Shown: positions 28,306 through 57,347 of the stretch, piece after piece
Position numbering within the stretch: position 1 is the first letter of the stretch
Layout: every line of letters starts with the position of its first letter
From: a virus
Taxonomy: Duplodnaviria; Heunggongvirae; Uroviricota; Caudoviricetes
IMG/VR virus record: IMGVR_UViG_3300034045_000104
DNA length: 64,000 bases
Strand: one strand, 5' to 3'
Position numbers and translations under genes: made by a program
The notes under the pieces: model-generated
Database searches by the model: none
The model's input: the letters and a program-made list of their open reading frames with translations, nothing else
Told to the model about the DNA's origin: nothing

Positions 28306-29202
28306 CTACAAATCCACCGAAACATGACCGCCTAAAATACCAACATCAGAAACAGATTGTACGTTTTTCAATTGGTCGTCAAAAAAAATATCTGCCCCAA
28401 AAGCTTTTACAAACTCACCTTTATCTAAGCCACCCAAAAACACAGATTCATCCATCCTTAAACCCCAATGCCTTATAGTTTTTAGAACCCTTTTGTGGGT
28501 TGGGCTACAGCGAGCCGTTATCATACAAGTACGAATTGGCACATCATCAATCCCAAAACAAGATTGAATATCATGCAAACCAGACAAAAAACCTTTAAAC
28601 AAACCATCTTCTAATGGCACGTTTTCATTTGCGACTTCGTGTTCTGTAAAGGCTTTTAATCCACCTGACTTAAAAAGACTTTCAGAAGCACTAGAGAACA
28701 ATACAGCATCACCATCAAAACCAATTCTCAAGGGCTCATCATCACACTCATTAGAAACAAAAGACCCATCAACACGTAAATGCGCTGCCGCTATACCATT
28801 ATCAAGACAGCTTTTAACTTCCTTGGCATGGGCTGACAAAAACAAATCAACACCATAAGCTTTAATGTATTCACTTCTTGAACCACCTTTAGTAAAAGCA
28901 CCTTTTTGAATATTAAGTCCATAATGTTCAATTGAATTAAAAATCCGTAAACCAACATCACCATGATTCCTAGAAACCATCACCACTTCAACTAAGGCAT
29001 CCCCAGTAACAGGGCTTTTAATATTTAGAAGTTTTTCCACAATCCCAAATGCAACTCCCTTTTTGAGAATTTTAGTTTCGTTTTGAATTTGATAATCCCG
29101 ATATTCATCCACTCCTTTGGATAAAAATAATTGATGTTCACTATCAAGATTAAATAAAACCCTTGAACTTACCGCTATTACCAATTTTGACATAATATTC
29201 AC
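28306..29202 (-). CDS. hypothetical protein; possible HAD-like phosphatase or nucleotidase
   Basis: 298-aa protein with an internal IGFDGDAVLF (DxDx[TV]-like HAD motif I). The assignment is weak. Confidence 0.3.
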   Translation of the reverse strand: MNIMSKLVIAVSSRVLFNLDSEHQLFLSKGVDEYRDYQIQNETKILKKGVAFGIVEKLLNIKSPVTGDALVEVVMVSRNHGDVGLRIFNSIEHYGLNIQKGAFTKGGSRSEYIKAYGVDLFLSAHAKEVKSCLDNGIAAAHLRVDGSFVSNECDDEPLRIGFDGDAVLFSSASESLFKSGGLKAFTEHEVANENVPLEDGLFKGFLSGLHDIQSCFGIDDVPIRTCMITARCSPTHKRVLKTIRHWGLRMDESVFLGGLDKGEFVKAFGADIFFDDQLKNVQSVSDVGILGGHVSVDL

Positions 29203-29213
29203 CTATACTTGAT

Positions 29214-29726
29214 TTAAGATATTATATGAATGCCAAGAATCCGCATCAAATGCAAGGCTTGAGATTTAGCATCATTCAAAGCATTATGCTTTTCCCCATA
29301 CATTTCAAATTCTTCATCAAGCATCAACTTACAAGCAGTTCGATAACAACAATTATTATGATAGTCCCAAGGAACAACTAACCCCAATTGTTCATAGGAG
29401 TTTCTTAGTATTACGTTGTCAAAATCAGCGCCATTACCCCACAACTCATCAATATCTCCAGCCCAAACAGAAAACTCAACCAAGGCATCCTTAAGGCTCT
29501 TAGGTTTATCAAATAAAGCATTGCGAACACAATCATTTTGCTCCATCCAAAATTGGATACACTTACCATCAATTTGCGAACCTGATTCTAAAGAGCTGCT
29601 CAAATCCACATTAATATAAAATTCATCAAGAACGTTCGTTGAATCAAATTTCACAGCTCCGATTGAAACAATAGCGGCATTACTCTTTGTGCTAAAAGTC
29701 TCCAAGTCCAACATTATTTTATTCAT
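29214..29726 (-). CDS. DEDDh-family 3'-5' exonuclease (DnaQ/epsilon-like)
   Basis: Exo I MLDLETFS (DxE), Exo II WGNGADFD, Exo III HNALNDA (H-x4-D). Confidence 0.6.
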   Translation of the reverse strand: MNKIMLDLETFSTKSNAAIVSIGAVKFDSTNVLDEFYINVDLSSSLESGSQIDGKCIQFWMEQNDCVRNALFDKPKSLKDALVEFSVWAGDIDELWGNGADFDNVILRNSYEQLGLVVPWDYHNNCCYRTACKLMLDEEFEMYGEKHNALNDAKSQALHLMRILGIHIIS

Positions 29727-37806: not shown

Positions 37807-38012
37807 TTTAAAGAGGCTAAATAACCATGAATTAGGGCAAAATACACCAATGAATAAAAAATGGGTGAAACCAATGAAAATAAGGGGGTAAAAGAGAAAT
37901 TAGACGTTGATTTAAACAAGTCCAACCCCCACAATTAAGAGGAGAAGGGGACAATAATTTCAGTAGATTCCGAAGTCAAGCAAATGAGTCTTCTTCTTAA
38001 CTTTAAAACCTA

Positions 38013-38736: not shown

Positions 38737-39015
38737 TTACATGCCCGGTGATGGTCCACTGCTTTGCGCCACAGGAGCAGGTGTGTTATTGTTATCCATT
38801 TCAAACGCACTATTTAAATCAGCTGCCGCCTGATTTGGATCAAATGCAACCGGCTCATTACCGGGGCTATTATGAGACAAAGTAAGCTGATGAACCATAT
38901 TGTCAACAGGTATCGTTCCTTGTCCACTAGCTCTATTGTAAAAAGCAGCTTCAATATTATCAGGTGCTTCATAAGCATCAGCAAAAGCATTTACATCTAC
39001 GTAGTTATCGGTCAT
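38737..39015 (-). CDS. hypothetical protein ending ...SGPSPGM
   Basis: 92-aa ORF. Its C-terminal GP.PGM tail resembles the tails of the two acidic paralogs upstream. Confidence 0.35.
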   Translation of the reverse strand: MTDNYVDVNAFADAYEAPDNIEAAFYNRASGQGTIPVDNMVHQLTLSHNSPGNEPVAFDPNQAAADLNSAFEMDNNNTPAPVAQSSGPSPGM

Positions 39016-39038
39016 TTTAGTTCCTCTGTGTATATATT

Positions 39039-41270
39039 TTAAAAATTCAAATCTAATGTGGTTTGCACATTATTTGTATTACTGTGATTGTTTTCGGTTG
39101 TTACACCATTTTCTAAACTCAAATCATTTATTTCTTGATGCACGAAACTAGAATTCAGTTCAGAAGCAACATCAATTCTAGCTTTTAAAACATCTAAAGA
39201 TGCAATCGTGTGACTTGTTCTATTTCGCAATGCTATATTTTCATTTTCATAACTCATCAAATTAATATCTGAAACATCAATACTACCCTGGGTCTCATAT
39301 CCTAAATCACCAATGTTGGACGCATTACTAGATTTAAATTCCATAAAATCAACATCAGTAACACCATCAAGACAATCCTTTACGTCACAAACATCTATTT
39401 TGACTCCAGATTTAACAACAACTCCAATAAAATCTTTAAGAGATGATAAATCAGCCAACAATACATCTGATACATCCTTAGCACTAACCACATCTCCATC
39501 GATTTTATTAGGTGCATTTTTACAAACAACAATAGCATCTTTAACATAAGCTATTGAATCTATTGTATCTGAACTCAAAAAAGACAATTCTTTAAGTTTT
39601 AATTTTGCATTCCCTGAAATTAGTTCAATTCGTTTCTCAGAGAGACCACCTGATAATTTGCCTTCATCTATGTTAAATTCATTCATGTAAGAATCAATAA
39701 CAGCAGAGTTAACACCAATATTAGAAAGCCGAGAAACGACATCAAGGAAACCAGGTTTTTCTCCCATTAATGGATCAGTAAAACTAATGGATATTTGCTC
39801 AATTGGCTCAAGTAAAGAAATTCTAGATGTTAAAAATGCTTTTTGTAAAACCTCCATCTCATCTTGCTCCCAATCAGTAGTAATCCCGCCCTCCACAAAA
39901 TCCATTTTCGTAGCCTCCCCATCATCCCCCATGGTATCGTTAAGTGAAGATGTATTTAGATTTGAATAAGCTGCGTCAAGTTTAATAACTTTATCAAAAG
40001 ACAGGTCGAGCGCATCAGCAATATCAGTATCACTTGGCTTTTTTTGAAACCGCGAATAATATTCTCTTTTATACTTCTTAATCTTAAGTATATCAATCCT
40101 GTCCTTTTCTGGCACTACAACAGTATTAAACATGTTATTAGATGCATTTCTTATAAATAATTCAGCGTAATGAGTAGCGTAAGCATTGAGTCTATTCCCA
40201 TTGGCAACCCTGTATCTTTCTATGCCTTGGGTATATCCAAGAACAGCAGCAGAAGATAATTCATTGCGAATATCGTTAGAAGGATGGGGAAAGTTTTTAA
40301 CGCGCTTATTTACAATGGTATAGATCCAATTAATATTTGCTTTTAGTAGTGTCTCAACATTCTTTTTATTAGCCCTATCAAAAGAGTTCAACTCCATAAT
40401 ATGTGATTGAATTTGAGAATAGGACATATTAAATTTGTTACCTAATGCTTGTTTAAGATTATAGACTTTTAAAGCCGCTTCACTTGTTGTTTTTGTTAAA
40501 ACGCTCCCAGAAACACGCTCTAAAGAGCTTTTAAATTCATCAAGTTTTTTATCAATCGGATTATCTTTTTGTTCAATATATGTTCTAAATTGTGGACCAG
40601 ATAAATTACAATCATCAACCAATAATGTTCTCAATTCCAGTCCGAAAACAGCCATGTCTCGTGCCACAAGGTCTGAATTAACTTTAAAAGCACTTAATGC
40701 ATCCTTAGAAAAAATTAGGCTTCTTGATTTTGCTCCTATTTGCTTAGATATTTTTTTCATACTGTCTAGATCACCTGTTAACCGGGATTTCATGTGTTTG
40801 TGATATAAACGATCTATTTCCATAAATGCCTTGGATAAAACACTTACATCAACATCATTACTTTCATACTTATCTACATTCTCTAAAGCCACATCACTTG
40901 GCTCGTCCGTTTCCCTTTTATTGCTTATAAATTTTAGCTCAGTATCTGGATAAGTGCCGCTTATTACATCGGCGTAGTTAATTTCTTTATTGTGAATTTG
41001 TACTATGCGCCTATGTAACAAATCAACATTACGTGGCACCGAAAAATATTCAGAAACTGTGTCTCTCTTAATATTGCGCATATCAATAAAAACATTGAAT
41101 TCAGCCTCCGCACTTAAATAGTTGGCATTAGTCTTTTTAACAGCTAATGGCACATATTCTTTATCATTGGTTTTGAAAAATTCATCGGCAAGTTCATCAG
41201 ACTCATCTTTAAACAAGTCATCACTCATTATTGCATCAAATTCCAAATCTACTTCAGCTTTATCATTCAT
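39039..41270 (-). CDS. RNA polymerase sigma-70 family factor (RpoD-like) with long acidic N- and C-terminal extensions
   Basis: Residues about 300-470 align colinearly with E. coli RpoD regions 2-3. ANINWIYTIVNKR matches ANLRLVISIAKKY. GNRLNAYATHYAELFIRNA matches GYKFSTYATWWIRQAITRS. VVVPEKDRIDILKIKKYKREYYSRFQKKPSDTDIADALDLSFDKVIKL...DTMGDDGEATKMDFVEG matches [48 protein letters not shown]...PIGDDEDSHLGDFIED. A weaker region-4-like stretch follows. Confidence 0.7.
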   Translation of the reverse strand: MNDKAEVDLEFDAIMSDDLFKDESDELADEFFKTNDKEYVPLAVKKTNANYLSAEAEFNVFIDMRNIKRDTVSEYFSVPRNVDLLHRRIVQIHNKEINYADVISGTYPDTELKFISNKRETDEPSDVALENVDKYESNDVDVSVLSKAFMEIDRLYHKHMKSRLTGDLDSMKKISKQIGAKSRSLIFSKDALSAFKVNSDLVARDMAVFGLELRTLLVDDCNLSGPQFRTYIEQKDNPIDKKLDEFKSSLERVSGSVLTKTTSEAALKVYNLKQALGNKFNMSYSQIQSHIMELNSFDRANKKNVETLLKANINWIYTIVNKRVKNFPHPSNDIRNELSSAAVLGYTQGIERYRVANGNRLNAYATHYAELFIRNASNNMFNTVVVPEKDRIDILKIKKYKREYYSRFQKKPSDTDIADALDLSFDKVIKLDAAYSNLNTSSLNDTMGDDGEATKMDFVEGGITTDWEQDEMEVLQKAFLTSRISLLEPIEQISISFTDPLMGEKPGFLDVVSRLSNIGVNSAVIDSYMNEFNIDEGKLSGGLSEKRIELISGNAKLKLKELSFLSSDTIDSIAYVKDAIVVCKNAPNKIDGDVVSAKDVSDVLLADLSSLKDFIGVVVKSGVKIDVCDVKDCLDGVTDVDFMEFKSSNASNIGDLGYETQGSIDVSDINLMSYENENIALRNRTSHTIASLDVLKARIDVASELNSSFVHQEINDLSLENGVTTENNHSNTNNVQTTLDLNF

Positions 41271-41272
41271 AA

Positions 41273-42706
41273 CTACATTCCTGGACCCGTAGGTTTATCA
41301 TCGGGTGATTCATCATCAGACTCGTCATCTGATGGCCCTTTAACAGAATTATCATTTGTGTCCTTTTCATAGGCTTCAATTAATTCTTCTGACAATACAT
41401 TTATATCTTGTTCTTTCTCAACTACACCAGCAGAAATATTAAACACTTGTGATAAATTGATCCCCGTTAAATCTACAACATCTCCATCAACGGGTTCAAC
41501 ATCATCTGCATTAGGTGTTATTTCGTCATGGGTTTCAGCATTCAAACTATGCCCACCCCCATCCATTATTAAGGCGTTATCTAACTCTGCAACATTATAT
41601 AAATCAGCATTAATATTATTTGAAGTATCTTTATACTGCTCATTTATAGATTTAACCTCATCTGCTAAATTAGGACTATCTAAATCCAATACAGGGCCAT
41701 TCCTTTTGTCCGTTTCATATGCATTAATTAATTCAGCGGCATTTATAACCCCTGTATTATCAACTCTCGCCTCATCTTCATGTTCAGATTCTATGTAAGC
41801 GGGTGCAGAAATGAGGATTTTATGTAAATTGTTTTCACTCAAATCAAGTTTATTATATAGAGCATCCCACTCTATGCGTTTTTTATCCATTTCAAAACGC
41901 ATCATGGGTTCATCACTGGCCTGAACATCTGTATTTAATTTATCGAAATCATCTCTAGACAAATCATTAACATTAAAAGCGAAAAACACCAAATCATGGG
42001 GATGGGCCTTATCATTGTTTATTAATGCATCGGTTAATATACTTATATTTGCATGAGGCATATTAGCCAGATCTGTGTATTTCATAATTGAATAATTATT
42101 AAATGGTATTTTTACCACATCACTTATCAACTCATTAACATCAACACCTGTTACACTAGCAAATCCTACAAGCTGATTTGATAAAACTGGGTTTTTATGA
42201 TTAGAAACATCATAACCGCTAATTAATGATTTCTGTATAGAACCTAAATCTACACCATTTTTTGTTTTAGCAAATTCCAAAACCTTATCTGGAGCGTTTT
42301 CTAACAAAATCTTGTGCTGCTCACAAATTAGAGATAAAACGCTTGTTGCACCTTTTGCGTGTTCCAAAAATTTGACATATTTAGGTAGGCCAGCATCATC
42401 ACCATACTTAACATTAAGTTCGTTTGCTTGATGCAATCTTAAGTCTTCATCAGTTGTGTGAGCTATATCCATAAGGTTTTTTTGAGAATCGGCCATTTTA
42501 AACAAAACAGCTTTGTTCACCATGAAGTCATTATTAGGATTGTTGACTATGAAGTAAAAATTATCTTCAAATGTTCCAATTTCGGCAATTCTATCTCTTA
42601 TGCCAGGATAATCAAAACCTTCGACATTAGCACTAAAAACAAGCAAATCATGACCAGAGCCAGTTTTAAGTAAATTTAATTCTTCTTGATATTCTTGTTC
42701 GTTCAT
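41273..42706 (-). CDS. acidic hypothetical protein, paralog A (N-term KTGSGHDLLVFS, C-term ...KPTGPGM)
   Basis: 477-aa, Asp/Asn-rich. Shares N- and C-terminal motifs with 42711-43940. A 2-bp gap to the sigma gene suggests an operon. Confidence 0.5.
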   Translation of the reverse strand: MNEQEYQEELNLLKTGSGHDLLVFSANVEGFDYPGIRDRIAEIGTFEDNFYFIVNNPNNDFMVNKAVLFKMADSQKNLMDIAHTTDEDLRLHQANELNVKYGDDAGLPKYVKFLEHAKGATSVLSLICEQHKILLENAPDKVLEFAKTKNGVDLGSIQKSLISGYDVSNHKNPVLSNQLVGFASVTGVDVNELISDVVKIPFNNYSIMKYTDLANMPHANISILTDALINNDKAHPHDLVFFAFNVNDLSRDDFDKLNTDVQASDEPMMRFEMDKKRIEWDALYNKLDLSENNLHKILISAPAYIESEHEDEARVDNTGVINAAELINAYETDKRNGPVLDLDSPNLADEVKSINEQYKDTSNNINADLYNVAELDNALIMDGGGHSLNAETHDEITPNADDVEPVDGDVVDLTGINLSQVFNISAGVVEKEQDINVLSEELIEAYEKDTNDNSVKGPSDDESDDESPDDKPTGPGM

Positions 42707-42710
42707 AATA

Positions 42711-43940
42711 TTAACTTACACCAGGTCCAGTATTAGTCGGTTTATCGCCTTGTTTAAGTTCTGCCTGTTTAGCTTCTTCATTCTCAACATCTTTATTTAG
42801 GGATTCTTGCAATTCTTCATGAACATAAGGGGAATCCATTTTCATTTGGCGCTCAATAGAACTTATAACTTCCAATTTGGGTTGGGAATTACTCATTGCT
42901 TGCATATCCTTATCCAAAGCCCCCATTAATTCATCGGCGTCATAAGGAGTGTCTGGATTTTGTAGAGCATCTTCCAAATAAACGAGATTGCTGGTAAATG
43001 GAAATTTACCATCAGTTGCCTCAGCAACATAATTTAATGTCTCAACCAAAGTTTTATCACCACCGTCATAATGTTGCATTAAGCTACTATAAAGCTTAAT
43101 ATTATTCATCTCACCAAAAATATCTTGCTCTATGGCATAAGCAATAGTAAATGACATAGAATGTGCATCATAACTAGCTTTTCCACCTGACAAAACATAC
43201 TGATTATTAAAAGAATCTATCAAATGATTTAAACCAAGATTTTGAATGCTTAAATCGGGTTTTAATTCTTCAATTAAAGATAGTAAATTATTATTAAAAA
43301 AAGGAAGGTATACGTGACTATTAACGTTATCTACCTTTTCATCTGAATTCTTAACTGCGTTTAAAATATCAACAGCAGAAGCTAGAACAGGTTCAAACCC
43401 TAAAGTTGGATCTATATTCTGTAAATCCTCAATTGCAACATGAGCATTATCAAAATCATAATTAATGCCTGATATGTTAATATTTAAATCATCTAGAGGT
43501 TGAAAAAAACGTGATGCATAATTAACCAAGGTTTTATGGGCTTTATGTAAATCCACACCAGGAACAAAACGTATAAATTCACGCATCAACAATGCAGCAC
43601 CTGGTCTATTTTCAAGATGCTTCTCAAAATGCCCAGAAACCAAATCAAGCACATTATTTGGATTAACATTTAGGTTAGATACCAAGTTATTAAAAAAAGA
43701 GGCGCTAGAATAAAAAGCTGCTCTATCTTCACGGTCTTGTCCATCATGATAAAATTCCAACAATTCAACACATTGCTTATTTATTTGGGGAAGTACATCA
43801 TCACCAGATTTGTTTATTCTTTCAATTAATTTACCGACCATGGCTTGACCACCATGCTCACGTATAAAAACCATGCAATCAGGTCCTGATCCACTTGCTA
43901 TAAGCTTGTTTTGCCTTTTAAAAAATTCAGGATTTGCCAT
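42711..43940 (-). CDS. acidic hypothetical protein, paralog B (N-term ASGSGPDCMVFI, C-term ...KPTNTGPGVS)
   Basis: 409-aa ORF, tandem to paralog A with a 4-bp gap. Confidence 0.5.
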   Translation of the reverse strand: MANPEFFKRQNKLIASGSGPDCMVFIREHGGQAMVGKLIERINKSGDDVLPQINKQCVELLEFYHDGQDREDRAAFYSSASFFNNLVSNLNVNPNNVLDLVSGHFEKHLENRPGAALLMREFIRFVPGVDLHKAHKTLVNYASRFFQPLDDLNINISGINYDFDNAHVAIEDLQNIDPTLGFEPVLASAVDILNAVKNSDEKVDNVNSHVYLPFFNNNLLSLIEELKPDLSIQNLGLNHLIDSFNNQYVLSGGKASYDAHSMSFTIAYAIEQDIFGEMNNIKLYSSLMQHYDGGDKTLVETLNYVAEATDGKFPFTSNLVYLEDALQNPDTPYDADELMGALDKDMQAMSNSQPKLEVISSIERQMKMDSPYVHEELQESLNKDVENEEAKQAELKQGDKPTNTGPGVS

Positions 43941-43942
43941 AA

Positions 43943-45433
43943 TTAACTCATGCTCGGTGCTGATGTTGGAACCGCTGGAATAACTTGAGGAACCTCAGAG
44001 AACTCAGCTTTCATTTCAGCTTGAATTTCTGGAACCTCTTCTTTGATAAATTTTACAGCCTCTACAAGCCCAATCTGGATTTTTTTATGGAACGATTCCG
44101 TTTCCTCACCGGGCAAACTTTGTATTGCTGCAAGTGGTGTATTCTCATCATGTTGCGCTAATTTCTTTGCAAACATGGATAGGGTAGGGATGCCTTTATT
44201 CTTACCTTTTAAACCACCCATCAATGCAAGTTTGTCAATAGCACCTTCTGAATTTTTGGTGGTTGCTCTTGCATACCAAACCATCGCCTTTGAAACAACA
44301 GTTCCTTTATTAATTAAATTAGAAAGATGCTCATTATTGTTTTCCAAACAACCCAAAACCTTAGAACATTTCCCAGCTATCGACCACAAAGCAGCAGCAC
44401 TTGATTCTGCATCCCCAATATAAGACATTATGTTTTGAGCACTGGTATCCAATTCCACATTTTCAAAACCAAGTGCTGATGTAAGCATAACAGCTCCACT
44501 TTCAGCAATTATATCTTCAAAATTATTATCATCATTATCCATGGCACTATGCAACCTGTTATCTCGCTTGAAACCACCTGTTGCTTTTATGAATTCTCTT
44601 GCTTGTATTGAAGTGTATTCCAAGATTGCCTGCTTATCTTTATCTTCAATATTAGATGAATCTATTCCAAATTCAATAGGATCACGAATAAGCAATTTAT
44701 CATTTACAGCATCATATTTACCAAGATGAGCTGATTGTTTAAGTAAGTCAACATCAACACCATTGTCAGCAATTAATTCCACTAATGCTTTATGGCTTTC
44801 ATTTAAAGGCACTTCGTTAATAGAAGGAATAATCATCATGTCAGCGGGCAATCCTGCAAATTCAGCGGCATTGAAAACCGTATACTCTCTAAATTTACCA
44901 GGGACTATTTGACTTACAGTATCTCTATCTGGGTTATAAGACATGCCATTAATGCTTTCAGGCTCTCCCTTAACCCTTGCATTTCTTAAATCTTCTTCAG
45001 TAACATCTTCAAAACCTTTAACCTTTAATCTGAATTTCTGAATTATAGAAAGTTTTTCCATTTCAACATTGAAAGATAAAGGGAAAAAAGAAGGGCAGCC
45101 CATGTTATCACCTGGCTCAATCGGTACACCATTTTTATTGGAGTAGTAACCACCAGCAGCTTTTGCTTGAGAAAGAGTTAAGAATACATTTGAAACTTTA
45201 TTACCATGACCTTTGACCGTAGACAGCCATTTAGAATATATCTTCATAAACATGCTATTTCTAGATGAAAAGTGCGCCTTGTTATCACGAAGATAACCAC
45301 CAATTATATTGCCAGCAAAAGAATGTGTAAGAGGATGAGAGCCAGTTGCGGTGATCTCATTCATTTTTAATACGATACCATCAAGCGCCTCATCAATTCC
45401 TGCGCCTAAATTAGCGTTTTTGTGTGTTGTCAT
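43943..45433 (-). CDS. hypothetical protein (about 496 aa from internal Met)
   Basis: The ORF track starts at 45565, but the first 44 codons translate the A/T-rich terminator region. A plausible start is MTTHKNANLG at 45433, preceded by agaagagaaaaaata. Confidence 0.45.
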   Translation of the reverse strand: MTTHKNANLGAGIDEALDGIVLKMNEITATGSHPLTHSFAGNIIGGYLRDNKAHFSSRNSMFMKIYSKWLSTVKGHGNKVSNVFLTLSQAKAAGGYYSNKNGVPIEPGDNMGCPSFFPLSFNVEMEKLSIIQKFRLKVKGFEDVTEEDLRNARVKGEPESINGMSYNPDRDTVSQIVPGKFREYTVFNAAEFAGLPADMMIIPSINEVPLNESHKALVELIADNGVDVDLLKQSAHLGKYDAVNDKLLIRDPIEFGIDSSNIEDKDKQAILEYTSIQAREFIKATGGFKRDNRLHSAMDNDDNNFEDIIAESGAVMLTSALGFENVELDTSAQNIMSYIGDAESSAAALWSIAGKCSKVLGCLENNNEHLSNLINKGTVVSKAMVWYARATTKNSEGAIDKLALMGGLKGKNKGIPTLSMFAKKLAQHDENTPLAAIQSLPGEETESFHKKIQIGLVEAVKFIKEEVPEIQAEMKAEFSEVPQVIPAVPTSAPSMS

Positions 45434-45502
45434 TATTTTTTCTCTTCTACAGTAAGCCTTATGCTTTGAGTCGAGTTTAATACAAAAGTATAAAAAACAA
45501 AA

Positions 45503-45556
45503 GAAAAAAAAGGGTTGAAAATTAAAAGTTATTAAAAATAACCAAATTTCAACCCC
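45503..45556 (-). terminator. rho-independent terminator separating the gene at 45575 from the sigma operon
   Basis: aaaaaaaa, aGGGTTGAAA...(20-nt loop)...TTTCAACCCt. The minus transcript reads hairpin followed by T8. Confidence 0.5.
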
Positions 45557-45574
45557 TGATGCCAAATAAAAATA

Positions 45575-45796
45575 CTAATGTAAAGTTTTTGGTATGTCTA
45601 AATCAACATTAACTTCACCAAATTTGTTTTTGAAAAACATATGAGTACCATCACTTAGCATAATCAGTTTTATTAATGCAGCAGAGACTGCTGTTACCGC
45701 CTCCTCTTTTGACATACCAATTACAGCACTATTAATTGCCTCATAAATATTAGATCCACCCATCGAACCTCCTTTTATATTATTATCAACAATCAT
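45575..45796 (-). CDS. hypothetical small protein
   Basis: The track ORF 45575-45928 overlaps the upstream gene by 125 bp. An internal Met (MIVDNNIKGGSMGG...) at 45796 gives a 73-aa product that abuts the upstream stop. Confidence 0.3.
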   Translation of the reverse strand: MIVDNNIKGGSMGGSNIYEAINSAVIGMSKEEAVTAVSAALIKLIMLSDGTHMFFKNKFGEVNVDLDIPKTLH

Positions 45797-46921: not shown

Positions 46922-48106
46922 TTAATCCCATTTTAGTGCCGTTTTGGAATAGTCGATTACGGTCGTCTCAAAAAAATTTTTCTCCTTACGAAGATTGGCC
47001 TGTTCATCAAGCCACGGTAAAGCACACTGCGCCCCAGGGAAAGGTTCAGAAAATCCCAAGCTTCTTGCTCTTCTATTGGCTATATATCTAGATTGTTCAA
47101 TATGCTCTAAAGCTGAATAGCCTAAAATCGGTTTTTTTAAAATAAAATGGGCATAAGCAGACTCAGCAGCATCTGATTCTTCCCACATGTTTTTAAGTGC
47201 TTTAGGCTCAAGTTTGATGTCATTTTCAATGAATATTTGTTTAATAACACGTATACCAAAAGATGCATGCATGACTTCATCACGCATAATATATTGAAAT
47301 TGCTGGCCTGTGGCTGCCATCATTCCCCTTCTTTGAAGAGAAAATATAGGAGAGAATCCGTTATAGAACCAGGTTCCTTCGAAGATAGCAGCAAAAAATA
47401 TATAGGCCATAATAAATTCATGAAGATCATCTTTATTAGTTAGATCCATATTAGATTTCAATACAGAATCAAGTCTACGATTAGCAATTTGAATTTTTCC
47501 ATTTATAGCTGGCACAACTCGATAACGGTTGTAAATCTCTCCCTGGTCTAGTCCGATGGTTTCGATACAATGTTGATAGGTCCATGTATGTAACGCTTCT
47601 TCATAGACTTGACGTGCTTGATAAATTTGAAGTTCTGGAGCAGTCATTTTTTCCATAACAGCCAAACCAATATTGCGCATAGCTAAAATATCAGACGTGG
47701 TAAGATATGACAGAACATTTTCATAAACATGTCGCTCATCATCATTAAGCTTATGGTAAAAATCAGAAACATCTCCAGACATTTGAATATCTAAAGGGGT
47801 CCAGTGATTTGAATTACTATTGAGAAAATACTTCCATGCCCAAGGATATTTAAATGGGGCTAATTGGTTAATATCAGATGTTCCCCCAACAACTCTTTTG
47901 TCATCAGGATTAATGGGTACTACTCCTCCTTCAACAGAACTCCTTTTATTTGCATCCTTAAATTTATCAGGAATTTCTGTAATAACATCAACATTCTTTT
48001 CAGGTGCGTCTTTTATATTTTGTTTTGGAGGTTCAATATTGTTTTCAGTCTGAGGCTTATTTAATCCTTTTCCTAAAGGATCTGCCCATGTTTTAGTTAG
48101 GTTCAT
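46922..48106 (-). CDS. nrdB: ribonucleotide reductase small subunit (ferritin-like di-iron R2)
   Basis: ...PFKYPWAWKYF..., iron-ligand helices (EALHTWTY ... FEGTWFYNGFSPIF ... RDEVMHASFG) and a C-terminal tail typical of NrdB/R2. Confidence 0.85.
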   Translation of the reverse strand: MNLTKTWADPLGKGLNKPQTENNIEPPKQNIKDAPEKNVDVITEIPDKFKDANKRSSVEGGVVPINPDDKRVVGGTSDINQLAPFKYPWAWKYFLNSNSNHWTPLDIQMSGDVSDFYHKLNDDERHVYENVLSYLTTSDILAMRNIGLAVMEKMTAPELQIYQARQVYEEALHTWTYQHCIETIGLDQGEIYNRYRVVPAINGKIQIANRRLDSVLKSNMDLTNKDDLHEFIMAYIFFAAIFEGTWFYNGFSPIFSLQRRGMMAATGQQFQYIMRDEVMHASFGIRVIKQIFIENDIKLEPKALKNMWEESDAAESAYAHFILKKPILGYSALEHIEQSRYIANRRARSLGFSEPFPGAQCALPWLDEQANLRKEKNFFETTVIDYSKTALKWD

Positions 48107-48711: not shown

Positions 48712-49466
48712 GCCTCCTCACCAGAATACTAAAACTGTGTCAGAACCTCACCAAATAGTAAAATTGTGTCAGAACCTCACCAGAATAGCAAAACTGTGTC
48801 AGAACCTCACCAAATAGCAAAACTGTGCCAGAACCTCACCAAAATAATGAAATATACAAAAAAAACAAAGAAAACAGTGCGGTATTAACACGTTCTAGCA
48901 TAAGATTAGAGTTATATAGCATTAAAGCTCCCGAATATATGTAACTTCAACACACTAAATTGGGACTATTACGAGGTTCTGGTGAGGTTCTGACACAGTG
49001 TTTTGGGGTTATTGCGTGAATCTGGTGAGGTTCTGACACAGTATTTTGGGGTTATTGCGTGAATCTGGTGAGGTTTTAACACACTAAACTGGGACTATTA
49101 CGAGGTTCTGGTGAGGTTCTGACACAGTATTTTGGGGTTATTGCGTGAATATGGTGAGGTTTTAACACACTAAATTGGGACTATTACGAGGTTCTGGTGA
49201 GGTTTTAACACAGTGTTTTGGCGCTATTGCGTGAATCAAGTGAGGTTCTGACACGCTAATTAGGTGCTATTACGTGAATCTAATGAGGTTTCAACACACT
49301 AAATTGGGACTATAAACCGGTTCTGGTGAGGTTTTAACACAGTGTTCTGGGACTATTACGAGGTTCTGGTGAGGTTTTAACACAATTTTGGTGAGGTTTT
49401 AAAACAGCATGGTGAGGTTGTGAAACAACGTGGTGAGGTTGTGAAACAGTAAAAATATTTAAAACG
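48712..49466. repeat. large iteron-like repeat region with TGTGTCAGAACCTCACCA 18-mers in opposite orientations (4-5 copies left, about 13 right)
   Basis: The left array (48716-48848) has 32-33-bp units cctcaccaRaataSYaaaaYtgtgYcagaa. The right array (48961-49450) has alternating about 43-bp units, tggtgaggttctgacacagtRttttggggttattgcgtgaat and tggtgaggttttaacacactaaaYtgggactattacgaggttc, that decay to about 21-bp units (tggtgaggttgtgaaaca). An AT-rich tract follows at 49466-49556. Confidence 0.8.
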
Positions 49467-49556
49467 TATATACCACGCCGTCTATAGAGCTAAATATTTA
49501 GTTATATAATAATGTATTAATAATAATGTATTCTAACTAATGTTTAAAAACATTAA

Positions 49557-51215
49557 ATGATGAAAAAAAAAGATAAAAGGAAAAAAATGTTAAGCAAAGA
49601 AGAAGAAGAAAAAGAACGCATTAAAGAAAAGCTTAAAAAGCAATATTTAGAATCAGCGGAAACTGAGTATGATGATAATGAAAAAGTATCTAACAGTCTT
49701 CTTGATACTCCTTCCATGATAAATGCTCAAGCAAATAATATAAATGAACAAACCAAATTTGATGACGTAGACATTGATGATTTATGTGAGATAGGTGAAT
49801 CCAAAAACTTAAATTTAGATGATTACGAAATAATCACAGATACTACAGCATACGAAGATTATGGAATAAAACCATTTGAACATTTCGGGAATAAAAAAGT
49901 TGCTATAACAGAAGAAATTATAAACAAAAACAGATTGATCCAAACCGAAAGGAGTATAGAAAGGTATGTAGGGCAAATCTTTCCATCAAATAAATCAGAA
50001 AGATTAAACAAGGAATACAGCAAGCAATGGCCAGTAAAGGCAAGACATAAAATTTCTGGAAAAGTCATAACTGTGGGAACCCAAGGAATAAAGATAAAAC
50101 CATCGCTTGATAAACTTCGGTATACCACAGAGACATTGAAAATATATTGGGCACTAATATTTTTGTGGAACGCAAATGGCTGTCCAGAAGCTAATGTTGA
50201 GATTGAAAGCAATTTAAGTGATCTTTGTAAAATACTAACCATCGAAAAAAATGGGGAAGTATATAAAAGGCTAATCAAAGAATTATATTGCCTTAAGGAG
50301 ACAAGTTTAGAATTCTTGCGCTCGTTTGAAGTAAAGGGCGGGGAAAAATACAAATCCAGAAACATAAATATATTAACTGAATTCAATCACAATTATCGTG
50401 AGAAAACACAAAATAAATACGAAAAAGCATTAGAATTAGACAAAGAACACCAAAGCAAACAAAAATTTTCTTTTAAATTCAATTCTGACATTATTGAAAA
50501 CCTCAAAAACAAAGTAACAATCCCGGTTAACCTAAAAGTATTGAATTCAATTCGGTCATCTATTGCTCAAAGCATGTACACAAAAACCAACAAAATATTA
50601 ATGTGGCGGTATAAAGAAGCACTGAGAGGGGGGATAGTAGACTATGAAAATACAGCGCGAAGAATTGTTGGAGAAATAGGATTAAAACAAAAAAACTATA
50701 AATACCCATCAAGAAGAAAAGCATTAATAAATTTAATAGTCAAGGCTCTTGATGGAAAAGAATTAACACAACCAGGCTACACAATAAAAGCAGAATTATT
50801 TGATGCTGCAAACATGGATTACAAAGTAAGATTTACTTTGGTTGTGGATAAAACTAAAATAAAAAAATCAAATAGGCCAAAAGTTATTAATACTGATCCT
50901 GATGTAATAAGGACAATTATAGATAGAATCAAGGAATACATTCAACCAAAAACTAACAAAGATGATGACGCATATAAGATTTATGCACAAGTTTATTCTT
51001 ATGATCTTATTAATGTAGCTGTTGGCCAAGCTAGAGAAAAAGAAGAATATTTAAAAACAATAGGCAATGAAGTAACTAATAGAGGCGGCTGGTTTTCTAA
51101 TACACTTCACCAAGAAGTTCATAAAAAAAGGCTTAAATGGATTGATGGATGTGATGATAACAATGAAAGTTGTCCAATTTTAAAAAGATTAAAAAATGAA
51201 GGTTACATAGTCTAA
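49557..51215 (+). CDS. Lys-rich protein adjacent to the repeat array; candidate replication initiator or partition/centromere-binding protein
   Basis: 552-aa plus-strand ORF starting within 100 bp of the repeat and AT-rich region. It has a highly basic N-terminus and no recognisable catalytic motif. Confidence 0.45.
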   Translation: MMKKKDKRKKMLSKEEEEKERIKEKLKKQYLESAETEYDDNEKVSNSLLDTPSMINAQANNINEQTKFDDVDIDDLCEIGESKNLNLDDYEIITDTTAYEDYGIKPFEHFGNKKVAITEEIINKNRLIQTERSIERYVGQIFPSNKSERLNKEYSKQWPVKARHKISGKVITVGTQGIKIKPSLDKLRYTTETLKIYWALIFLWNANGCPEANVEIESNLSDLCKILTIEKNGEVYKRLIKELYCLKETSLEFLRSFEVKGGEKYKSRNINILTEFNHNYREKTQNKYEKALELDKEHQSKQKFSFKFNSDIIENLKNKVTIPVNLKVLNSIRSSIAQSMYTKTNKILMWRYKEALRGGIVDYENTARRIVGEIGLKQKNYKYPSRRKALINLIVKALDGKELTQPGYTIKAELFDAANMDYKVRFTLVVDKTKIKKSNRPKVINTDPDVIRTIIDRIKEYIQPKTNKDDDAYKIYAQVYSYDLINVAVGQAREKEEYLKTIGNEVTNRGGWFSNTLHQEVHKKRLKWIDGCDDNNESCPILKRLKNEGYIV

Positions 51216-54228: not shown

Positions 54229-54510
54229 CTAAACCTTTACAGTGCCATAAGCCAAATATTGTAAGCTATAACCGCTAGTAATGGTAAAAAATAAAGACAT
54301 CAAATAATCAATCGCTAGCTGTCCAAATAAAATAACATTTGCTACAATAAAAACTGTAGATGTTAAATTAATTAACAGTTCCTTTGTAAAAGAAACGTCA
54401 AATCCGTTAACAGCGGCATAAATAGCCAAAAACAAACCGGATAAAACAAATATATATATTGTAAGAACCAATACATCAACAATATATTTAAAAAACACTT
54501 TTAACTTCAT
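54229..54510 (-). CDS. small membrane protein (about 3 TM)
   Basis: 93-aa hydrophobic ORF. Confidence 0.4.
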   Translation of the reverse strand: MKLKVFFKYIVDVLVLTIYIFVLSGLFLAIYAAVNGFDVSFTKELLINLTSTVFIVANVILFGQLAIDYLMSLFFTITSGYSLQYLAYGTVKV

Positions 54511-54543
54511 GATTTAATTCTCCTAGTGGGTTAGTGATTTCAT

Positions 54544-54792
54544 TTATTTTGGTTCAATCACGTCATTCTGTATTTCTTTGTGTAATTTATCTTTATTCAA
54601 ATTAAAATGAACAAAGTCAAACAACGTATATAAAAAAAATAATGCGCAATACACCATAAATACTATGATTGATGCATATATATAATGGTCATAAATATTG
54701 TCTTTATTTAAGACTATATCTAATGCACCCAAAAAGAGAAAAACCGTAAGGCACATTTGAAGTACCATTTTTAGATTAATCTTTGAATTCAC
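54544..54792 (-). CDS. small membrane protein (2 TM)
   Basis: 82-aa hydrophobic ORF. Confidence 0.4.
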   Translation of the reverse strand: MNSKINLKMVLQMCLTVFLFLGALDIVLNKDNIYDHYIYASIIVFMVYCALFFLYTLFDFVHFNLNKDKLHKEIQNDVIEPK

Positions 54793-55024
54793 GTTCTTCT
54801 CCTTCTTTTAGTTTATTTAATGTTCGTGCGTACAAACGACTTCTTATCACTTTTAATCCCTTATCCCTAGCATTCCTCATTGAAGAAAAAAATTCATTTG
54901 TTAAAACTATTTTTTCACCCGTTGGTTTGTGGACACACTTAACGTACCATATGATCCTACTCATACCCGTAAAATCATTTAAGAACCCAGAAATTACATC
55001 TACATCTGTTATTTTATATTTCAT
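54776..55024 (-). CDS. small basic soluble protein
   Basis: 82-aa ORF with a 17-bp overlap to the downstream membrane protein gene. Confidence 0.35.
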   Translation of the reverse strand: MKYKITDVDVISGFLNDFTGMSRIIWYVKCVHKPTGEKIVLTNEFFSSMRNARDKGLKVIRSRLYARTLNKLKEGEEREFKD

Positions 55025-55173
55025 TAGAATAATCTCATAATACGTTATTTTAACTCAAGAAACCATTTCCAATGCTCCGGCTTCCATAAATTAGGATTGT
55101 TAACGTCTTCACTGTCTGTTGGTGGATATTGAACGCCCAGGCCAACAATGGCCTTGTTAATATGTTTTCTATG

Positions 55174-55437
55174 TCAATCAAGCAACGTATTTGCTTTAAT
55201 GCTCTGTTGCTCTGTTAATAATGATTGGTCCATTGTTGAAACATTTTTTAATTTACGACCTTGTAATATCCACTGGTCTTTAGTTACCCCTCTCTCATAC
55301 TTAGATGACCCACACATTGAAATAGCTTTGTCTTGACCAGAAAGGTAATTTAAAAACCCATTAAATAGTTTAATAAAGCACCAGCCTATAAAAACTCCCA
55401 GAGCTATTGTAAATATTAAAATTATATCAATATTCAT
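55174..55437 (-). CDS. small membrane protein (N-terminal TM anchor)
   Basis: 87-aa ORF beginning MNIDIILIFTIALGVFIGWCFIKLF. Confidence 0.35.
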   Translation of the reverse strand: MNIDIILIFTIALGVFIGWCFIKLFNGFLNYLSGQDKAISMCGSSKYERGVTKDQWILQGRKLKNVSTMDQSLLTEQQSIKANTLLD

Positions 55438-55650
55438 AATTTATTCCTCCTTACTTTCAATCTTAGCCTTTAAATATTCACTTGCATCTTTAATTTCAAA
55501 AATAACGAAAGGTACAAAGAGAATGCTAAATACAATTGCTATAAACAGAGATGCGATTCCTAAATCATGTGGCATATATAAATTCCTATTATTGTGATAG
55601 ATTTGTTTTTCATAAAAACACTTTAATTAATTTAGCCCTATTGTATTGAT

Positions 55651-56016
55651 TTACCAATAATAATAAAAATAGGGCACAATAAATAACAACACAGCAAATC
55701 CTGCCTGTAACAGACCTAGATTATTGATTCTTTTTACATACCTTAAATACAGCGACCTGACTAAAAGAACAACACCACCAAAAGCAAGAAGCTTAAGGGC
55801 AAGTTGACCCAAGGCCATTCTTGCTTCGTATACCCTATCATAATTTAATGGCATAGGCGCACCATCATCAAATATAGATAGAAAGCCAATTATAACCAGT
55901 ATCAAAAAGACAGTAAAACCCACACCCAACATTAAACCTATTAATGTATCCACTACTTTGTTTTTCTTTTTTATAACTTTAGTTTTTCCCATAACAACCT
56001 CAATTTGGTTCATCAC
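55651..56016 (-). CDS. membrane protein (about 3 TM)
   Basis: 121-aa hydrophobic ORF. Confidence 0.4.
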   Translation of the reverse strand: MMNQIEVVMGKTKVIKKKNKVVDTLIGLMLGVGFTVFLILVIIGFLSIFDDGAPMPLNYDRVYEARMALGQLALKLLAFGGVVLLVRSLYLRYVKRINNLGLLQAGFAVLLFIVPYFYYYW

Positions 56017-56052
56017 TTTTCATATGACTACAGCCATAATTCTACAATACTT

Positions 56053-56676
56053 CTAACCCCAAACAATGGCAACCTCTATACCTAAAATAAGCTGATCATC
56101 GTGCTGCTCATCTGCTTCAACCGCAGACTTACCCTTGGCCTTTTTAACAGGCTTTGGGGCAAGCACCTCATACTTTTCATACATATCCTGTTGGCCAGGA
56201 CGCTGTTCCACAGGAACACATTCAACATATTCCTTGCGCTGCTTATTCATAATATTAGGTGTTGCAGAAATCCGCAATACAGGATTTAACTCTAATTTAT
56301 TTAAATGATCATATAATCGTTTTAAATTACCACATAAATCCCGCTGGTACCGCTCTGCCAACAAAGGGGTATGTACAATGGAACCATCTACTCCTCGATG
56401 AAACTCTGTTCGCAGCATTCTTTTAATGCGCGAATTTTCCATACCTTTTAGTAACTCAACACTGCCGTCAGAACCAAACCACCCAACCACCAAGGATGGT
56501 AAATAGGATGCTGCGAATTCCAAGCGTGGCCTCAACTCTGAAATCATGTATTTAAACTCACGTTCCAATTTGTTTTGTTGATCTTTTTTGCGCTGCTTTT
56601 CAAGTGCTATGCCCTGCTGTTCTTGTTGCTTAACAGCAGCCCCATAAATGTTCTTAAGCGAATCTAAATCTATCAT
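56053..56676 (-). CDS. hypothetical protein
   Basis: 207-aa ORF, soluble, with a charged coiled-coil-like N-terminus. Confidence 0.4.
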   Translation of the reverse strand: MIDLDSLKNIYGAAVKQQEQQGIALEKQRKKDQQNKLEREFKYMISELRPRLEFAASYLPSLVVGWFGSDGSVELLKGMENSRIKRMLRTEFHRGVDGSIVHTPLLAERYQRDLCGNLKRLYDHLNKLELNPVLRISATPNIMNKQRKEYVECVPVEQRPGQQDMYEKYEVLAPKPVKKAKGKSAVEADEQHDDQLILGIEVAIVWG

Positions 56677-56763
56677 ATGCTTTTCTCTAATTATCTATTT
56701 ATACATTGTGTCCTAGCCACAACCCATATAATAACATCCAGATGATAGATGCTCAAGACCCAA

Positions 56764-57183
56764 TCAACCATTCAAAGCCAAAAGACAAGGCATAACATCG
56801 ACAAGACGATAATAACCCTTACACTCAAATTCGAGTCCATCACTGCTGTATGCCTGGAATACGAACTCATTACCATTATCACCATCTGGAAGCTCTCTAT
56901 CTGTCATATCAATTGGCAGATGTAAAGCAGGCGGTGTGGATGTAGCATTTTCAAACATAACCTCTAAACACTCAATGTCATCCATTTGCCCTCTGGAGAC
57001 AATTACATGTTCACATTTTTTCATAGCCTCAATGTCATAAAGTTTTGAATCTGGGATAAACAATCTCCCAAAACCCGGACGCCAAGACAAATACGCACGG
57101 CCAGCTGCAGCATGTGCTGTACTAAAATAATTTGTACTCAAAAACTGCGAGCCCTTTGTTTTTATTGTTATCAACTCACTCAT
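56764..57183 (-). CDS. hypothetical protein
   Basis: 139-aa ORF. Confidence 0.4.
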   Translation of the reverse strand: MSELITIKTKGSQFLSTNYFSTAHAAAGRAYLSWRPGFGRLFIPDSKLYDIEAMKKCEHVIVSRGQMDDIECLEVMFENATSTPPALHLPIDMTDRELPDGDNGNEFVFQAYSSDGLEFECKGYYRLVDVMPCLLALNG

Positions 57184-57347
57184 AAAATATCCTCATTTTT
57201 ACTAATTATATAAACGATACCAATCCTGATACCGGCATAAATTTTAAAAAGTTTCATGCTCACTTAAAACCCTACATTGCATCATTCACAAACAATCCAT
57301 GCCCGTGCCAGGATAACACCAACAAAGCTATTACCAATACTACCAAG

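Follow-up and report, generated by a model that had tools for sequence, protein, structure and literature searches.

Which task is served by an operon that encodes a very large sigma factor together with acidic orphan proteins marked by the same short peptides? This question is raised by a locus in the virus record IMGVR_UViG_3300034045_000104 (Caudoviricetes), of which a stretch of 64,000 nucleotides (nt), in the following called the window, was analyzed. An earlier note, made by reading the letters of the stretch, had suggested that part of this locus is a transcription-takeover module consisting of a sigma gene and a duplicated family of acidic proteins. Element-encoded sigma factors are a known route to the capture of host RNA polymerase, but studies that include their accessory proteins are very few. 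Judged by its profile matches, the protein of 743 amino acids (aa) at this locus is a bona fide but very divergent member of the sigma-70 family, and its gene is part of a single transcription unit of six genes with its own control region. Four of the other products carry short terminal peptides, in part combined with an internal motif, which together are an undescribed peptide-motif set. We tentatively read the unit as an operon for establishment or host takeover: the sigma factor would redirect the host RNA polymerase, and the tagged proteins would dock to one common partner.

The operon, its control region and its second copy

The unit consists of six closely packed minus-strand open reading frames (ORFs), running from 45433 down to 38224, which encode an ArdC-like protein, the acidic orphan proteins B and A, the sigma factor, a small acidic protein of 92 aa and a cell-wall hydrolase (Table 1). 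The coordinates, sizes and strand of the ORFs given in the earlier note were reproduced, as were the small gaps of 2, 4 and 2 nt, and its proposal that the sigma gene is co-transcribed with acidic proteins sharing terminal motifs agrees with the tight junctions and the shared tails. It described four genes of the unit; the ArdC-like gene, although within its range, had been left uninterpreted, and the hydrolase gene lies outside that range. The junctions measure 2 nt between the ArdC-like gene and B, 4 nt between B and A, 2 nt between A and the sigma gene, and 0 nt where the start codon of the hydrolase gene abuts the stop codon of the 92-aa gene; the sigma gene is followed by a spacer of 23 nt with a GAGGAA-type ribosome-binding site for the 92-aa gene. 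As the junctions are tight (0-4 nt), co-expression of the operon genes is implied.

All ortholog comparisons refer to L001, a 9.5-kb contig assembled from run SRR29593758, in which the genes are arranged in identical order, down to the 322-aa gene that precedes the operon. The unit upstream is closed by an intrinsic terminator, the RNA of which folds with -17 kcal/mol (z -3.8). Its position and its T-run are kept in the alignment of the window with L001, where the hairpin at the matching place has another stem sequence and folds with -18.2 kcal/mol (z -5.5). The operon leader that follows is almost invariant between window and L001 and has no second copy elsewhere in the window, and about 200 nt of non-coding DNA lie downstream of the hydrolase gene. 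Because of this terminator, the unique conserved leader and the non-coding end, the six genes make up a single transcription unit that has a control region to itself. A generic scan for promoters and terminators gave nothing above shuffled sequences and missed the operon terminator due to its long loop.

Two further observations concern the borders of the unit. Past the hydrolase gene, a non-coding block of ~50 nt is conserved that holds TTGACT-17 nt-TATTGT, the sole good -35/-10 pair seen near the operon; this block may represent a promoter of host type or else a small RNA. At the other end, the stretch between the terminator and the 322-aa gene holds an ORF of 62 aa, which has AAAGGAGG as a strong ribosome-binding site, and L001 (1096-1170) has lost most of this ORF, with the last ~15 codons still recognizable.

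Window and L001 share 75% identity in the ArdC-like protein, 50% in B, 54-55% in A and 67% in the 92-aa protein, and the sigma factor is 62% identical to L001 P0002 by BLASTP and 64% in a pairwise alignment. Since the orthologous ORFs are intact at this divergence, these five ORFs are real genes. Among 5.8 billion protein clusters, the sigma factor has exactly one relative, the one in L001, and A and B each have a single homolog, L001 P0003 and P0004, respectively; word-indexed searches of these clusters with the three proteins gave only identical JGI entries and one Logan contig. Protein-guided scans and hand-made degenerate DNA patterns for the sigma gene revealed nothing further in IMG/VR, JGI metagenome contigs or GTDB genomes, and megablast of 8.6 kb of the locus against plasmids and phages gave no match. 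The module is extremely rare in present data.

The sigma factor

That the 743-aa protein belongs to the sigma-70 family, as first proposed from the letters, is borne out by several searches. The family phrog_351 (“RNA polymerase sigma factor”) matches aa 269-473 with an E-value of 4.9e-13, 25 sigma models of NCBIfam (RpoD/SigA, SigB/F/G, FliA/WhiG, RpoS) cover aa 270-513 in colinear alignments with a best E-value of 1.9e-12, and PDB chains of mycobacterial SigA align to aa 348-467, which corresponds to regions 2.2 to 3.2 (E 6.8e-5). A Pfam scan for the three domains Sigma70_r2, r3 and r4 answered in part: r3 is above its cut-off (28.6 vs. 25.3 bits, E 1.5e-6, aa 394-463), but r2 is sub-threshold and r4 gives no match. 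The NCBIfam scores are all far under the curated cut-offs, and the best RpoD-type score is 47 bits, compared with cut-offs of 354-555 for RpoD. The long RpoD model NF004208 spans aa 51-461 but reaches just 25.7 bits; since this is lower than the domain-limited models, the N-terminal part of the protein adds nothing to the RpoD match. Regions 1.1, 1.2 and 4 are not demonstrable with NCBIfam, Pfam or hhalign, and the designation “group-1-like” is not borne out. With tblastn only distant cellular or phage sigma factors were found (22-28% identity), and the model of MzaA, the sigma factor of the MZA defence system, matches with E 0.0065 and 15 bits against a cut-off of 800.

In the alignment with PDB SigA, region 2.2 has kept its core-binding block well (AVLGYTQGIERYRVANGNRLNAYATHY), and the Trp-Trp pair of region 2.3, which melts the -10 element, is replaced by His-Tyr. 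The NCBIfam alignments end at aa 508-513, within region 4.1. For a possible degenerate region 4, aa 447-581 were compared with region 3.2-4 of four well-known sigma factors, the sequences of which were entered by hand: hhalign places aa 543-563 (LSEKRIELISGNAKLKLKELS) on the recognition helix of region 4.2 with E 0.09, with an insertion of ~24 aa between regions 4.1 and 4.2, and the -35 contacts R584, E585, R588 and Q589 of these hand-entered references align to E, K, E and L. Furthermore, the large extensions described earlier, ~300 aa at the N-terminus (aa 1-300) and at the C-terminus ~180 aa (aa 566-743) instead of the ~200 aa given there, were found again. Both hold blocks that are strongly conserved between window and L001, and no family matches aa 1-270 or 566-743. 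The first 60 aa contain 28% Asp and Glu, and a likeness to region 1.1 is an analogy only.

The promoters of the element

A sigma factor with altered promoter contacts can be compared with the promoters present in the same DNA. Of 61 TATAAT hexamers on the minus strand of the window, 31 are intergenic, though intergenic DNA makes up 13% of the window, and they mostly lie 20-50 nt before start codons. These sites form a promoter-like class with G at -7 (25/31), a pyrimidine at -6 (27/31) and T at positions -9 and -11 to -13, all relative to the hexamer. Neither a TTGACA-like element at any spacing nor a TGn motif was found in the 31 aligned sites, and the class thus differs from canonical sigma-70 as well as from extended -10 promoters. 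The motif TATAATG(GG), noticed in the earlier note, is a subset of it. The 322-aa gene upstream of the operon has a promoter of this class (46807), but the operon leader is outside the class and has no G at -7. The degenerate -35 helix and the altered -10-melting residues of the sigma factor fit these genome-wide promoters without a -35 element, a fit that is circumstantial. The sigma factor thus offers two large conserved extensions and altered promoter contacts together with a matching promoter class. To the transcription-takeover idea of the earlier note, which is still plausible, this class lends indirect support, although the operon makes no use of it.

Short peptides shared by the operon proteins

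The N- and C-terminal strings of A, B and the 92-aa protein quoted in the earlier note are exact; the internal repeated helix motif as well as the N-terminal motif and tail of the ArdC-like protein had been overlooked. Near the N-terminus a GxGxD motif is present as TGSGHD in A (LLKTGSGHDLLVF), as SGSGPD in B (LIASGSGPDCMVF) and as LGAGID in the ArdC-like protein (NLGAGIDEALD). Within the first 35 residues, G.G.D occurs in 3 of 102 predicted proteins, which are the consecutive ArdC-like protein, B and A, at an expectation of 0.01 per protein. As the motif is not significant by a hidden Markov model (HMM) alone (E 0.4 to 1.2), the case for it rests on position and adjacency.

The second element is an acidic helix motif of 10 residues, [DEAN][DE][LI]x-x[AS][YLFHI]x-x-D, mostly placed after DP or SP. 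It occurs in A, B and the 92-aa protein (Table 1) and in no other of 352 ORFs. The pattern was fitted post hoc to the data, and with this fitted pattern 10 matches were observed versus 0.01 in shuffled sequences. The shared helix motif also resembles one half of a tetratricopeptide repeat (TPR) unit, “DPNN turn + TPR helix A”. With its profile, the 92-aa protein weakly matches TPR proteins designed from a consensus (E 5e-4), but this match was rejected: no stretch is significant, and the match is probably an artefact inflated by the repeats of the targets.

The third element is the C-terminal tail, which is listed in Table 1 for all four proteins. No other ORF of the window ends in such a tail. 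Leave-one-family-out HMMs of the last 45 residues, searched against the 352 ORFs, serve as the independent test of helix motif and tail: HMMs built from two of the three families A, B and 92-aa protein find the held-out family as the best non-training match, with E-values from 3e-5 to 0.3. The tail of the ArdC-like protein is not retrieved by these HMMs and is only loosely similar. A DNA pattern for PTGPGM followed by a stop codon had 9 matches in IMG/VR, which lie in unrelated contexts and were judged to be chance.

All shared motifs are kept in L001. In the C-terminal third of A the conservation between the orthologs falls to 15-50% with indels, and the motif islands and the tail are fixed. 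Short peptides that are common to otherwise unrelated proteins point to a specific protein-protein or targeting interaction.

The ArdC-like protein and the cell-wall hydrolase

The first protein of the unit is matched by the anti-restriction family phrog_7245 over aa 172-366 (E 1.2e-8) and by the zincin domain of ArdC in the PDB entries 6i89 and 6sna over aa 273-366 (E 2e-4); the match of Pfam MPTase-PolyVal is weak. The HExxH motif of the zincin is replaced, AHEATH being AREFIK in the window and AREFMK in L001, and the downstream Glu helix FE(E/D)xIAE is retained. Because HExxH has given way to REFIK/REFMK, zinc-dependent proteolysis is unlikely, and the protein is probably a conserved, naturally protease-dead relative of ArdC. 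Pfam ArdC-N has no match in the 496-aa protein at E up to 1, and phmmer of aa 1-190 against PDB found no ArdC. A segment “YTVFNA..(a)GLP” at the end of the ArdC N-domain aligns weakly, and “FLTLSQAKAAGG” looks by eye like the ArdC-N signature; it is a lead only. An extra C-terminal region of ~130 aa follows, with a tail that is identical in L001.

The last protein of the unit is a hydrolase with Pfam Hydrolase_2 above the cut-off (E 3.8e-11) and matches to PHROG endolysin families. By inspection it has an N-terminal signal peptide (MKFVFIAFLLVGFSPVCRSG; ...GEAHA|G in L001). PADLOC gave no significant match for any of the six operon proteins.

A possible host-takeover operon

How could these parts act together? 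In the reading that we prefer, the host RNA polymerase holoenzyme would read the unique leader of the operon, which would yield the ArdC-like protein, B, A, the sigma factor, the small acidic protein and a Sec-exported peptidoglycan hydrolase. The sigma factor would bind the host core RNA polymerase via regions 2 and 3 and redirect it to the promoters of the element, which combine TATAAT with a fixed G/T-rich stretch upstream and lack a -35 hexamer. GxGxD, helix motif and tail would be docking motifs for one common partner. Our pick for this partner is the complex of sigma factor and RNA polymerase, with A, B and the 92-aa protein as putative anti-sigma-like or accessory factors; the 92-aa protein, encoded right after the sigma factor, may be the minimal version of them. 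Anti-sigma genes often adjoin sigma genes. What we infer here are the timing of expression, the promoters read by the sigma factor and the binding targets of the peptides. The reading is supported by the fact that the operon lacks the promoter class of the element yet has its own leader after a conserved terminator, and by the motifs, which are confined to the operon (102 genes, 352 ORFs) and form islands in otherwise divergent acidic regions.

Several points weigh against it. Pfam Sigma70_r2 reaches just 14 bits (E 0.045) at a cut-off of 24 bits, and Sigma70_r4 does not match even at E 10. The AlphaFold2 models, based on alignments of two sequences, are unusable, with a predicted local distance difference test (pLDDT) score of 33.5 for the sigma factor, in which only region 3 reaches ~70, and of 41.5 for A. 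The sigma factor itself bears none of the shared peptides. The ArdC-like protein, which is no transcription protein, has the N-terminal motif and a related tail, which fits a delivery tag better, and an exported hydrolase is odd in an early transcription unit. Acidity alone is weak evidence, since the proteome of the element is acidic overall (13.5% Asp and Glu). Moreover, the promoter class could be read by the host sigma-70, with the sigma factor of the element acting on late genes outside the window. On balance we hold the host-takeover reading as a possible account, at rather less than an even chance.

Alternative explanations

A delivery function of the terminal peptides, the main rival reading, is possible too, if somewhat doubtful. 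The ArdC-like protein, B, A and perhaps the 92-aa protein would then enter a new host together with the DNA, either packaged into a capsid and injected or through a conjugation channel, and the sigma factor would be merely co-encoded and made in the cell. For this there is precedent, because ArdC of pSa and TraC1 of RP4 accompany the transferred DNA and ArdC/MPTase modules are characteristic of polyvalent proteins that are injected (PMC5512222), and because the unrelated internal proteins of T4 share only a capsid targeting sequence (PMC3012670). Three consecutive proteins without detectable homology share the terminal motifs here and the sigma factor does not, and the tails are built of acidic blocks, then small residues, then a hydrophobic one near the end. 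Such an order resembles type IVB (Dot/Icm-like) signals. An ATPase of the GspE/PilB/TraJ/DotB superfamily is encoded in the window, but it fits GspE/PilB far better than DotB or VirB11, and the ~45 ORFs scanned of the 64-kb window include no recognizable component of a capsid, portal or type IV secretion system and no recognizable terminase or relaxase. Nor does the window encode a further tagged protein. A targeting signal is not usually repeated two or three times per protein, as the helix motif is. Moreover, the proteins have a very acidic composition, and the 92-aa protein has no N-terminal motif. Docking and delivery are not mutually exclusive.

It is unlikely that A and B, possibly along with the ArdC-like protein, are tandem duplicates so old that their relationship is beyond detection, the motifs being remnants without a common partner. 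The genes are adjacent and of similar size, both proteins have a helical body followed by an acidic tail, and BLASTP of A against B gives three colinear weak high-scoring segment pairs (HSPs), at the N-terminus (E 0.04), internally over 43 aa (E 0.003) and at the C-terminus (E 0.3). However, all HSPs are short (E 0.003-0.3); the one of 43 aa, obtained without low-complexity masking, is the only hint, and the best one at default settings has 31 aa and E 0.02. Semi-global scores of the four A/B combinations lie at z 1.0-1.6 relative to shuffles of 25-residue blocks and thus within expectation. With the ortholog pairs of A and B, hhalign aligns just 19 N-terminal columns (E 0.098; hhalign values range up to 0.33), and a profile of B searched exhaustively with HMMER against 1.84 billion representatives retrieved the ortholog only and not A. 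Neither A nor B has a sequence match in Pfam, PHROG, NCBIfam, PADLOC or PDB. For full-length similarity, this is the outcome that the earlier note had itself named as refuting its claim: on sequence grounds A and B are not demonstrable paralogs, and may be unrelated or undetectably related proteins sharing short peptides. The 92-aa protein corresponds to the C-terminal module without a body, which argues for a mobile or convergent peptide module that is selected in its own right, and remnants are not expected to be the best-conserved parts of fast-evolving regions. A scheme in which A, B and the ArdC-like protein are diverged ArdC duplicates was dropped, as neither A nor B gives a significant hhalign match with the ArdC-like protein.

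The C-terminus of the sigma factor leads to a more far-reaching idea. The last residues form a conserved peptide Q-x-T-[LM]-D-[LF]-x-F, QTTLDLNF in the window and QSTMDFVFDN in L001, preceded by an Asn/Ser-rich linker that is poorly conserved and contains indels. The bacterial consensus for clamp binding is QL[SD]LF, and the peptide resembles such sliding-clamp-binding motifs. Together with the promoters without a -35 element, this by analogy suggests clamp-coupled transcription by the sigma factor. Carried further, the locus might be an undescribed self-contained transcription system, with a clamp-tethered giant sigma factor derived from RpoD and a new peptide code that docks three unrelated acidic proteins and an inactivated ArdC-like protein to one hub, for which we see quite a small chance. 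Transcription would then be coupled to replication as in phage Mu or in the late genes of T4, the difference being a sigma factor of full length, and the tagged proteins could be both partners of the sigma factor and substrates of export or packaging, in a FlgM-like checkpoint. Phage Mu, too, is reported to use the beta clamp for late transcription (PMC12867686).

It is very unlikely that the tails act in cis on translation, by an embedded ribosome-binding site or an effect of the nascent peptide on termination and re-initiation. The presence of a tail correlates perfectly with a tight junction, as only 0-4 nt separate each of the four genes with a tail from the next gene, and the tail-less sigma gene is followed by its 23-nt spacer, and AGGA or GAG lies 6-8 nt before the next start, inside the last codons (GGA ATG; ATG AGT; GTG AGT). 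Yet 13 other tightly coupled gene pairs of the window have unrelated C-termini without such tails. Moreover, the Pro, Thr and Gly codons of the tails differ at synonymous sites, between genes as well as between orthologs; amino acids are conserved and nucleotides are not, so selection acts on the peptide. The linker from helix motif to tail varies in length, including an indel of 9 residues, and the N-terminal and internal motifs would be left unexplained.

That the motifs are chance or compositional products of Asp/Asn/Gly/Pro-rich sequence in acidic ORFs unrelated to the sigma factor is highly improbable: they are short, their regular expressions were written with the data in view, the proteome is acidic and the N-terminal motif fails as an HMM, but they hold the same positions in consecutive genes and in an element at 50-64% identity, the GxGxD proteins are all adjacent, the fitted helix pattern is nearly absent from shuffles, and the leave-one-out HMMs recover the held-out family as top match.

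The element

The window has 35% G+C, and 96 of its 102 predicted ORFs, many of them orphans, are on the minus strand. Three adjacent tandem arrays of 29 nt x4.3, 43 nt x10 and 21 nt x3.9 (~18 iteron-like repeats) share the core TGGTGAGGTT / CCTCACCA, with the first array inverted. They directly precede the only long plus-strand ORF, which encodes a putative initiator of 552 aa that has no family or plasmid homolog, and the lowest G+C as well as a sign change of the GC skew are found at the iteron region. Arrays and ORF (48716-51215) are probably an iteron-type origin with its initiator. Since iterons lie next to an initiator-like ORF, nucleotide genes of phage type are present, the genes are biased to one strand and there is no close match among plasmids or phages, the DNA is regarded as a mobile element, in agreement with the setting assumed earlier; it looks like a large phage or a phage-plasmid.

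Among the neighboring genes, an RTPR-type monomeric class II B12-dependent ribonucleotide reductase, a type common in phages (1193 phage records), and a class I small (beta) subunit are encoded, and no class I large subunit was recognized in the window. A single-stranded DNA-binding protein (SSB; phrog_44, E 9e-52) with a DMDQPF tail and a DnaQ-like 3'-5' exonuclease (phrog_255, E 2e-48) are present as well. The acidic/hydrophobic tail of the SSB is a second kind of C-terminal hub-binding peptide on the element. Further genes encode a RecD2-like helicase, DNA methyltransferases, SIR2, an SPFH protein and a PAPS-reductase-like protein. The GspE/PilB-like ATPase of 306 aa corresponds to the C-terminal ATPase part (GspE E 1.5e-41, TraJ and DotB weaker) and adjoins a run of small predicted membrane proteins without family matches; together they may represent a relic, or a minimal module for secretion or pili. 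A 5'-nucleotidase (PF06189, 352 bits) has its nearest cellular relatives, at 47-57% identity, in marine or aquatic Gamma- and Betaproteobacteria (Alcanivoracaceae, Marinicella, Spongiibacter, SAR86, Coxiellaceae), and the host is probably a low-GC gammaproteobacterium. No Rfam families or tRNAs were found in the window.

Table 1. Positions of the operon, its motifs and further features in the window
Feature	Position (nt)	Strand	Remarks
ArdC-like protein, 496 aa	43943-45433	-	first gene of the unit
Acidic orphan protein B, 409 aa	42711-43940	-	net charge -30
Acidic orphan protein A, 477 aa	41273-42706	-	net charge -55; C-terminal 177 aa with 25% Asp+Glu
Divergent sigma-70 family factor, 743 aa	39039-41270	-	
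Small acidic protein, 92 aa	38737-39015	-	isoelectric point 4.05, one basic residue
SleB/CwlJ-type cell-wall hydrolase, 170 aa	38224-38736	-	last gene of the unit
Intrinsic terminator of the upstream unit	hairpin 45510-45557, T-run 45502-45509	-	marks the operon start
Promoter/leader of the operon, 68 nt	45434-45501	-	TTTTGTATTAAACTC ... CAAAGCATAAGGCTTACTGTAGAAGAGA
REFIK site of the ArdC-like protein	44594-44608		aa 276-280; REFMK in L001
Region 2 of the sigma factor	40116-40358		~ aa 305-385
Region 3 of the sigma factor	39882-40091		aa 394-463
Possible degenerate region 4	39582-39824		aa 483-563
C-terminal peptide of the sigma factor	39042-39065		last 8 codons
Helix motif in A	41708-41737, 41360-41389		aa 324-333, 440-449; weak copy at ~aa 370
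Helix motif in B	42906-42935, 42789-42818		aa 336-345, 375-384
Helix motif in the 92-aa protein	38794-38823		aa 65-74; one copy
Tail of A	41276-41296		KPTGPGM
Tail of B	42714-42743		KPTNTGPGVS
Tail of the 92-aa protein	38740-38763		SSGPSPGM
Tail of the ArdC-like protein			VPTSAPSMS
Example sites of the TATAAT class	63498, 61297, 46807, 33752, 21794, 6002	-	L001: 8913
Conserved non-coding block	37950-38005		L001 8535-8585
62-aa ORF	45575-45763		
Iteron-like arrays	48716-49449		
Putative initiator, 552 aa	49557-51215	+	
RTPR-type ribonucleotide reductase	1371-3320		
Class I small (beta) subunit	46922-48106		
SSB	26632-27120		
DnaQ-like exonuclease	29214-29726		
5'-nucleotidase	28306-29202		
GspE/PilB-like ATPase, 306 aa	53053-53973		
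Small predicted membrane proteins	54229-57686		

Comparison with known systems

As a takeover operon with a sigma factor on a mobile element, the locus would belong to a known general kind, and its set of peptide tags is undescribed. If the peptides serve as tags for docking or delivery, functionally linked orphan proteins of uncultivated phages and plasmids could be traced by them, as by a portable handle; if they are not tags, the locus would be one more orphan-rich takeover operon. The locus also offers a relative of ArdC that is probably protease-dead by nature.

The closest counterparts of the sigma factor are those of phages and other elements (PHROG 351), among them the “group 2” jumbo phages, in which RpoD-like sigma factors redirect the host polymerase (PMC7824862). 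The likeness lies in regions 2-3 and in the presumed role, the redirection of the host core polymerase, and no RNA polymerase of the element is encoded in the window. The best phage matches by tblastn are annotated sigma factors of Synechococcus phage S-CREM2 and the jumbo Escherichia phage EJP2, with 24-27% identity over ~180 aa. In contrast to these sigma factors, the one described here has 743 aa with unique conserved extensions, an unrecognizable region 4 and changed promoter contacts, and its gene shares a transcript with those of the ArdC-like protein and the peptide-tagged acidic proteins.

T4 late transcription (sigma factor gp55, co-activator gp33, sliding clamp gp45) is similar in its -10-type promoters without a -35 element and in proteins that share a C-terminal peptide: gp55, gp33 and gp43 have a common peptide for binding the clamp as their hub, placed on a divergent linker of variable length (PMC2988020). 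The hydrophobic/acidic clamp-binding termini of T4, such as that of its DNA polymerase, resemble the end of the sigma factor (TLDLNF; MDFVFDN in L001). However, gp55 is a minimal sigma factor of 185 aa with region 2 only, whereas the sigma factor here is full length and includes region 3, and the tails of A, B and the 92-aa protein are Pro/Gly-rich and not hydrophobic/acidic. No sequence homology of the operon proteins to gp33 or gp55 was detected, and no sliding-clamp gene was recognized among the ORFs of the window.

With ArdC of R388/pSa (6i89, 6sna) and the polyvalent ArdC-N/MPTase proteins, the ArdC-like protein has in common the zincin-like domain, the setting in a mobile element and the place as first gene of the unit. 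It differs from them in the lost HExxH, the undetected ArdC-N, the additional C-terminal region, the GxGxD motif and the tail.

The internal proteins IPI-III and Alt of T4, unrelated proteins of adjacent genes of which at least one is anti-restriction-like, have in common a terminal capsid targeting sequence (PMC3012670). Adjacent unrelated genes that share only a short terminal peptide are the likeness to the operon, but here the motifs are found at both termini and as an internal repeat, and the proteins have 409-496 aa and are acidic. There is no similarity to the T4 targeting sequence, and no capsid or prohead protease genes are known for the element.

Finally, FlgM is an intrinsically disordered anti-sigma factor of sigma-28. 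Like the anti-sigma factors of this type, the 92-aa protein is small, acidic and probably disordered, it is encoded right after the sigma gene and it has a helix-forming motif; it shares no sequence homology with them, and its motif is present in two much larger proteins as well.

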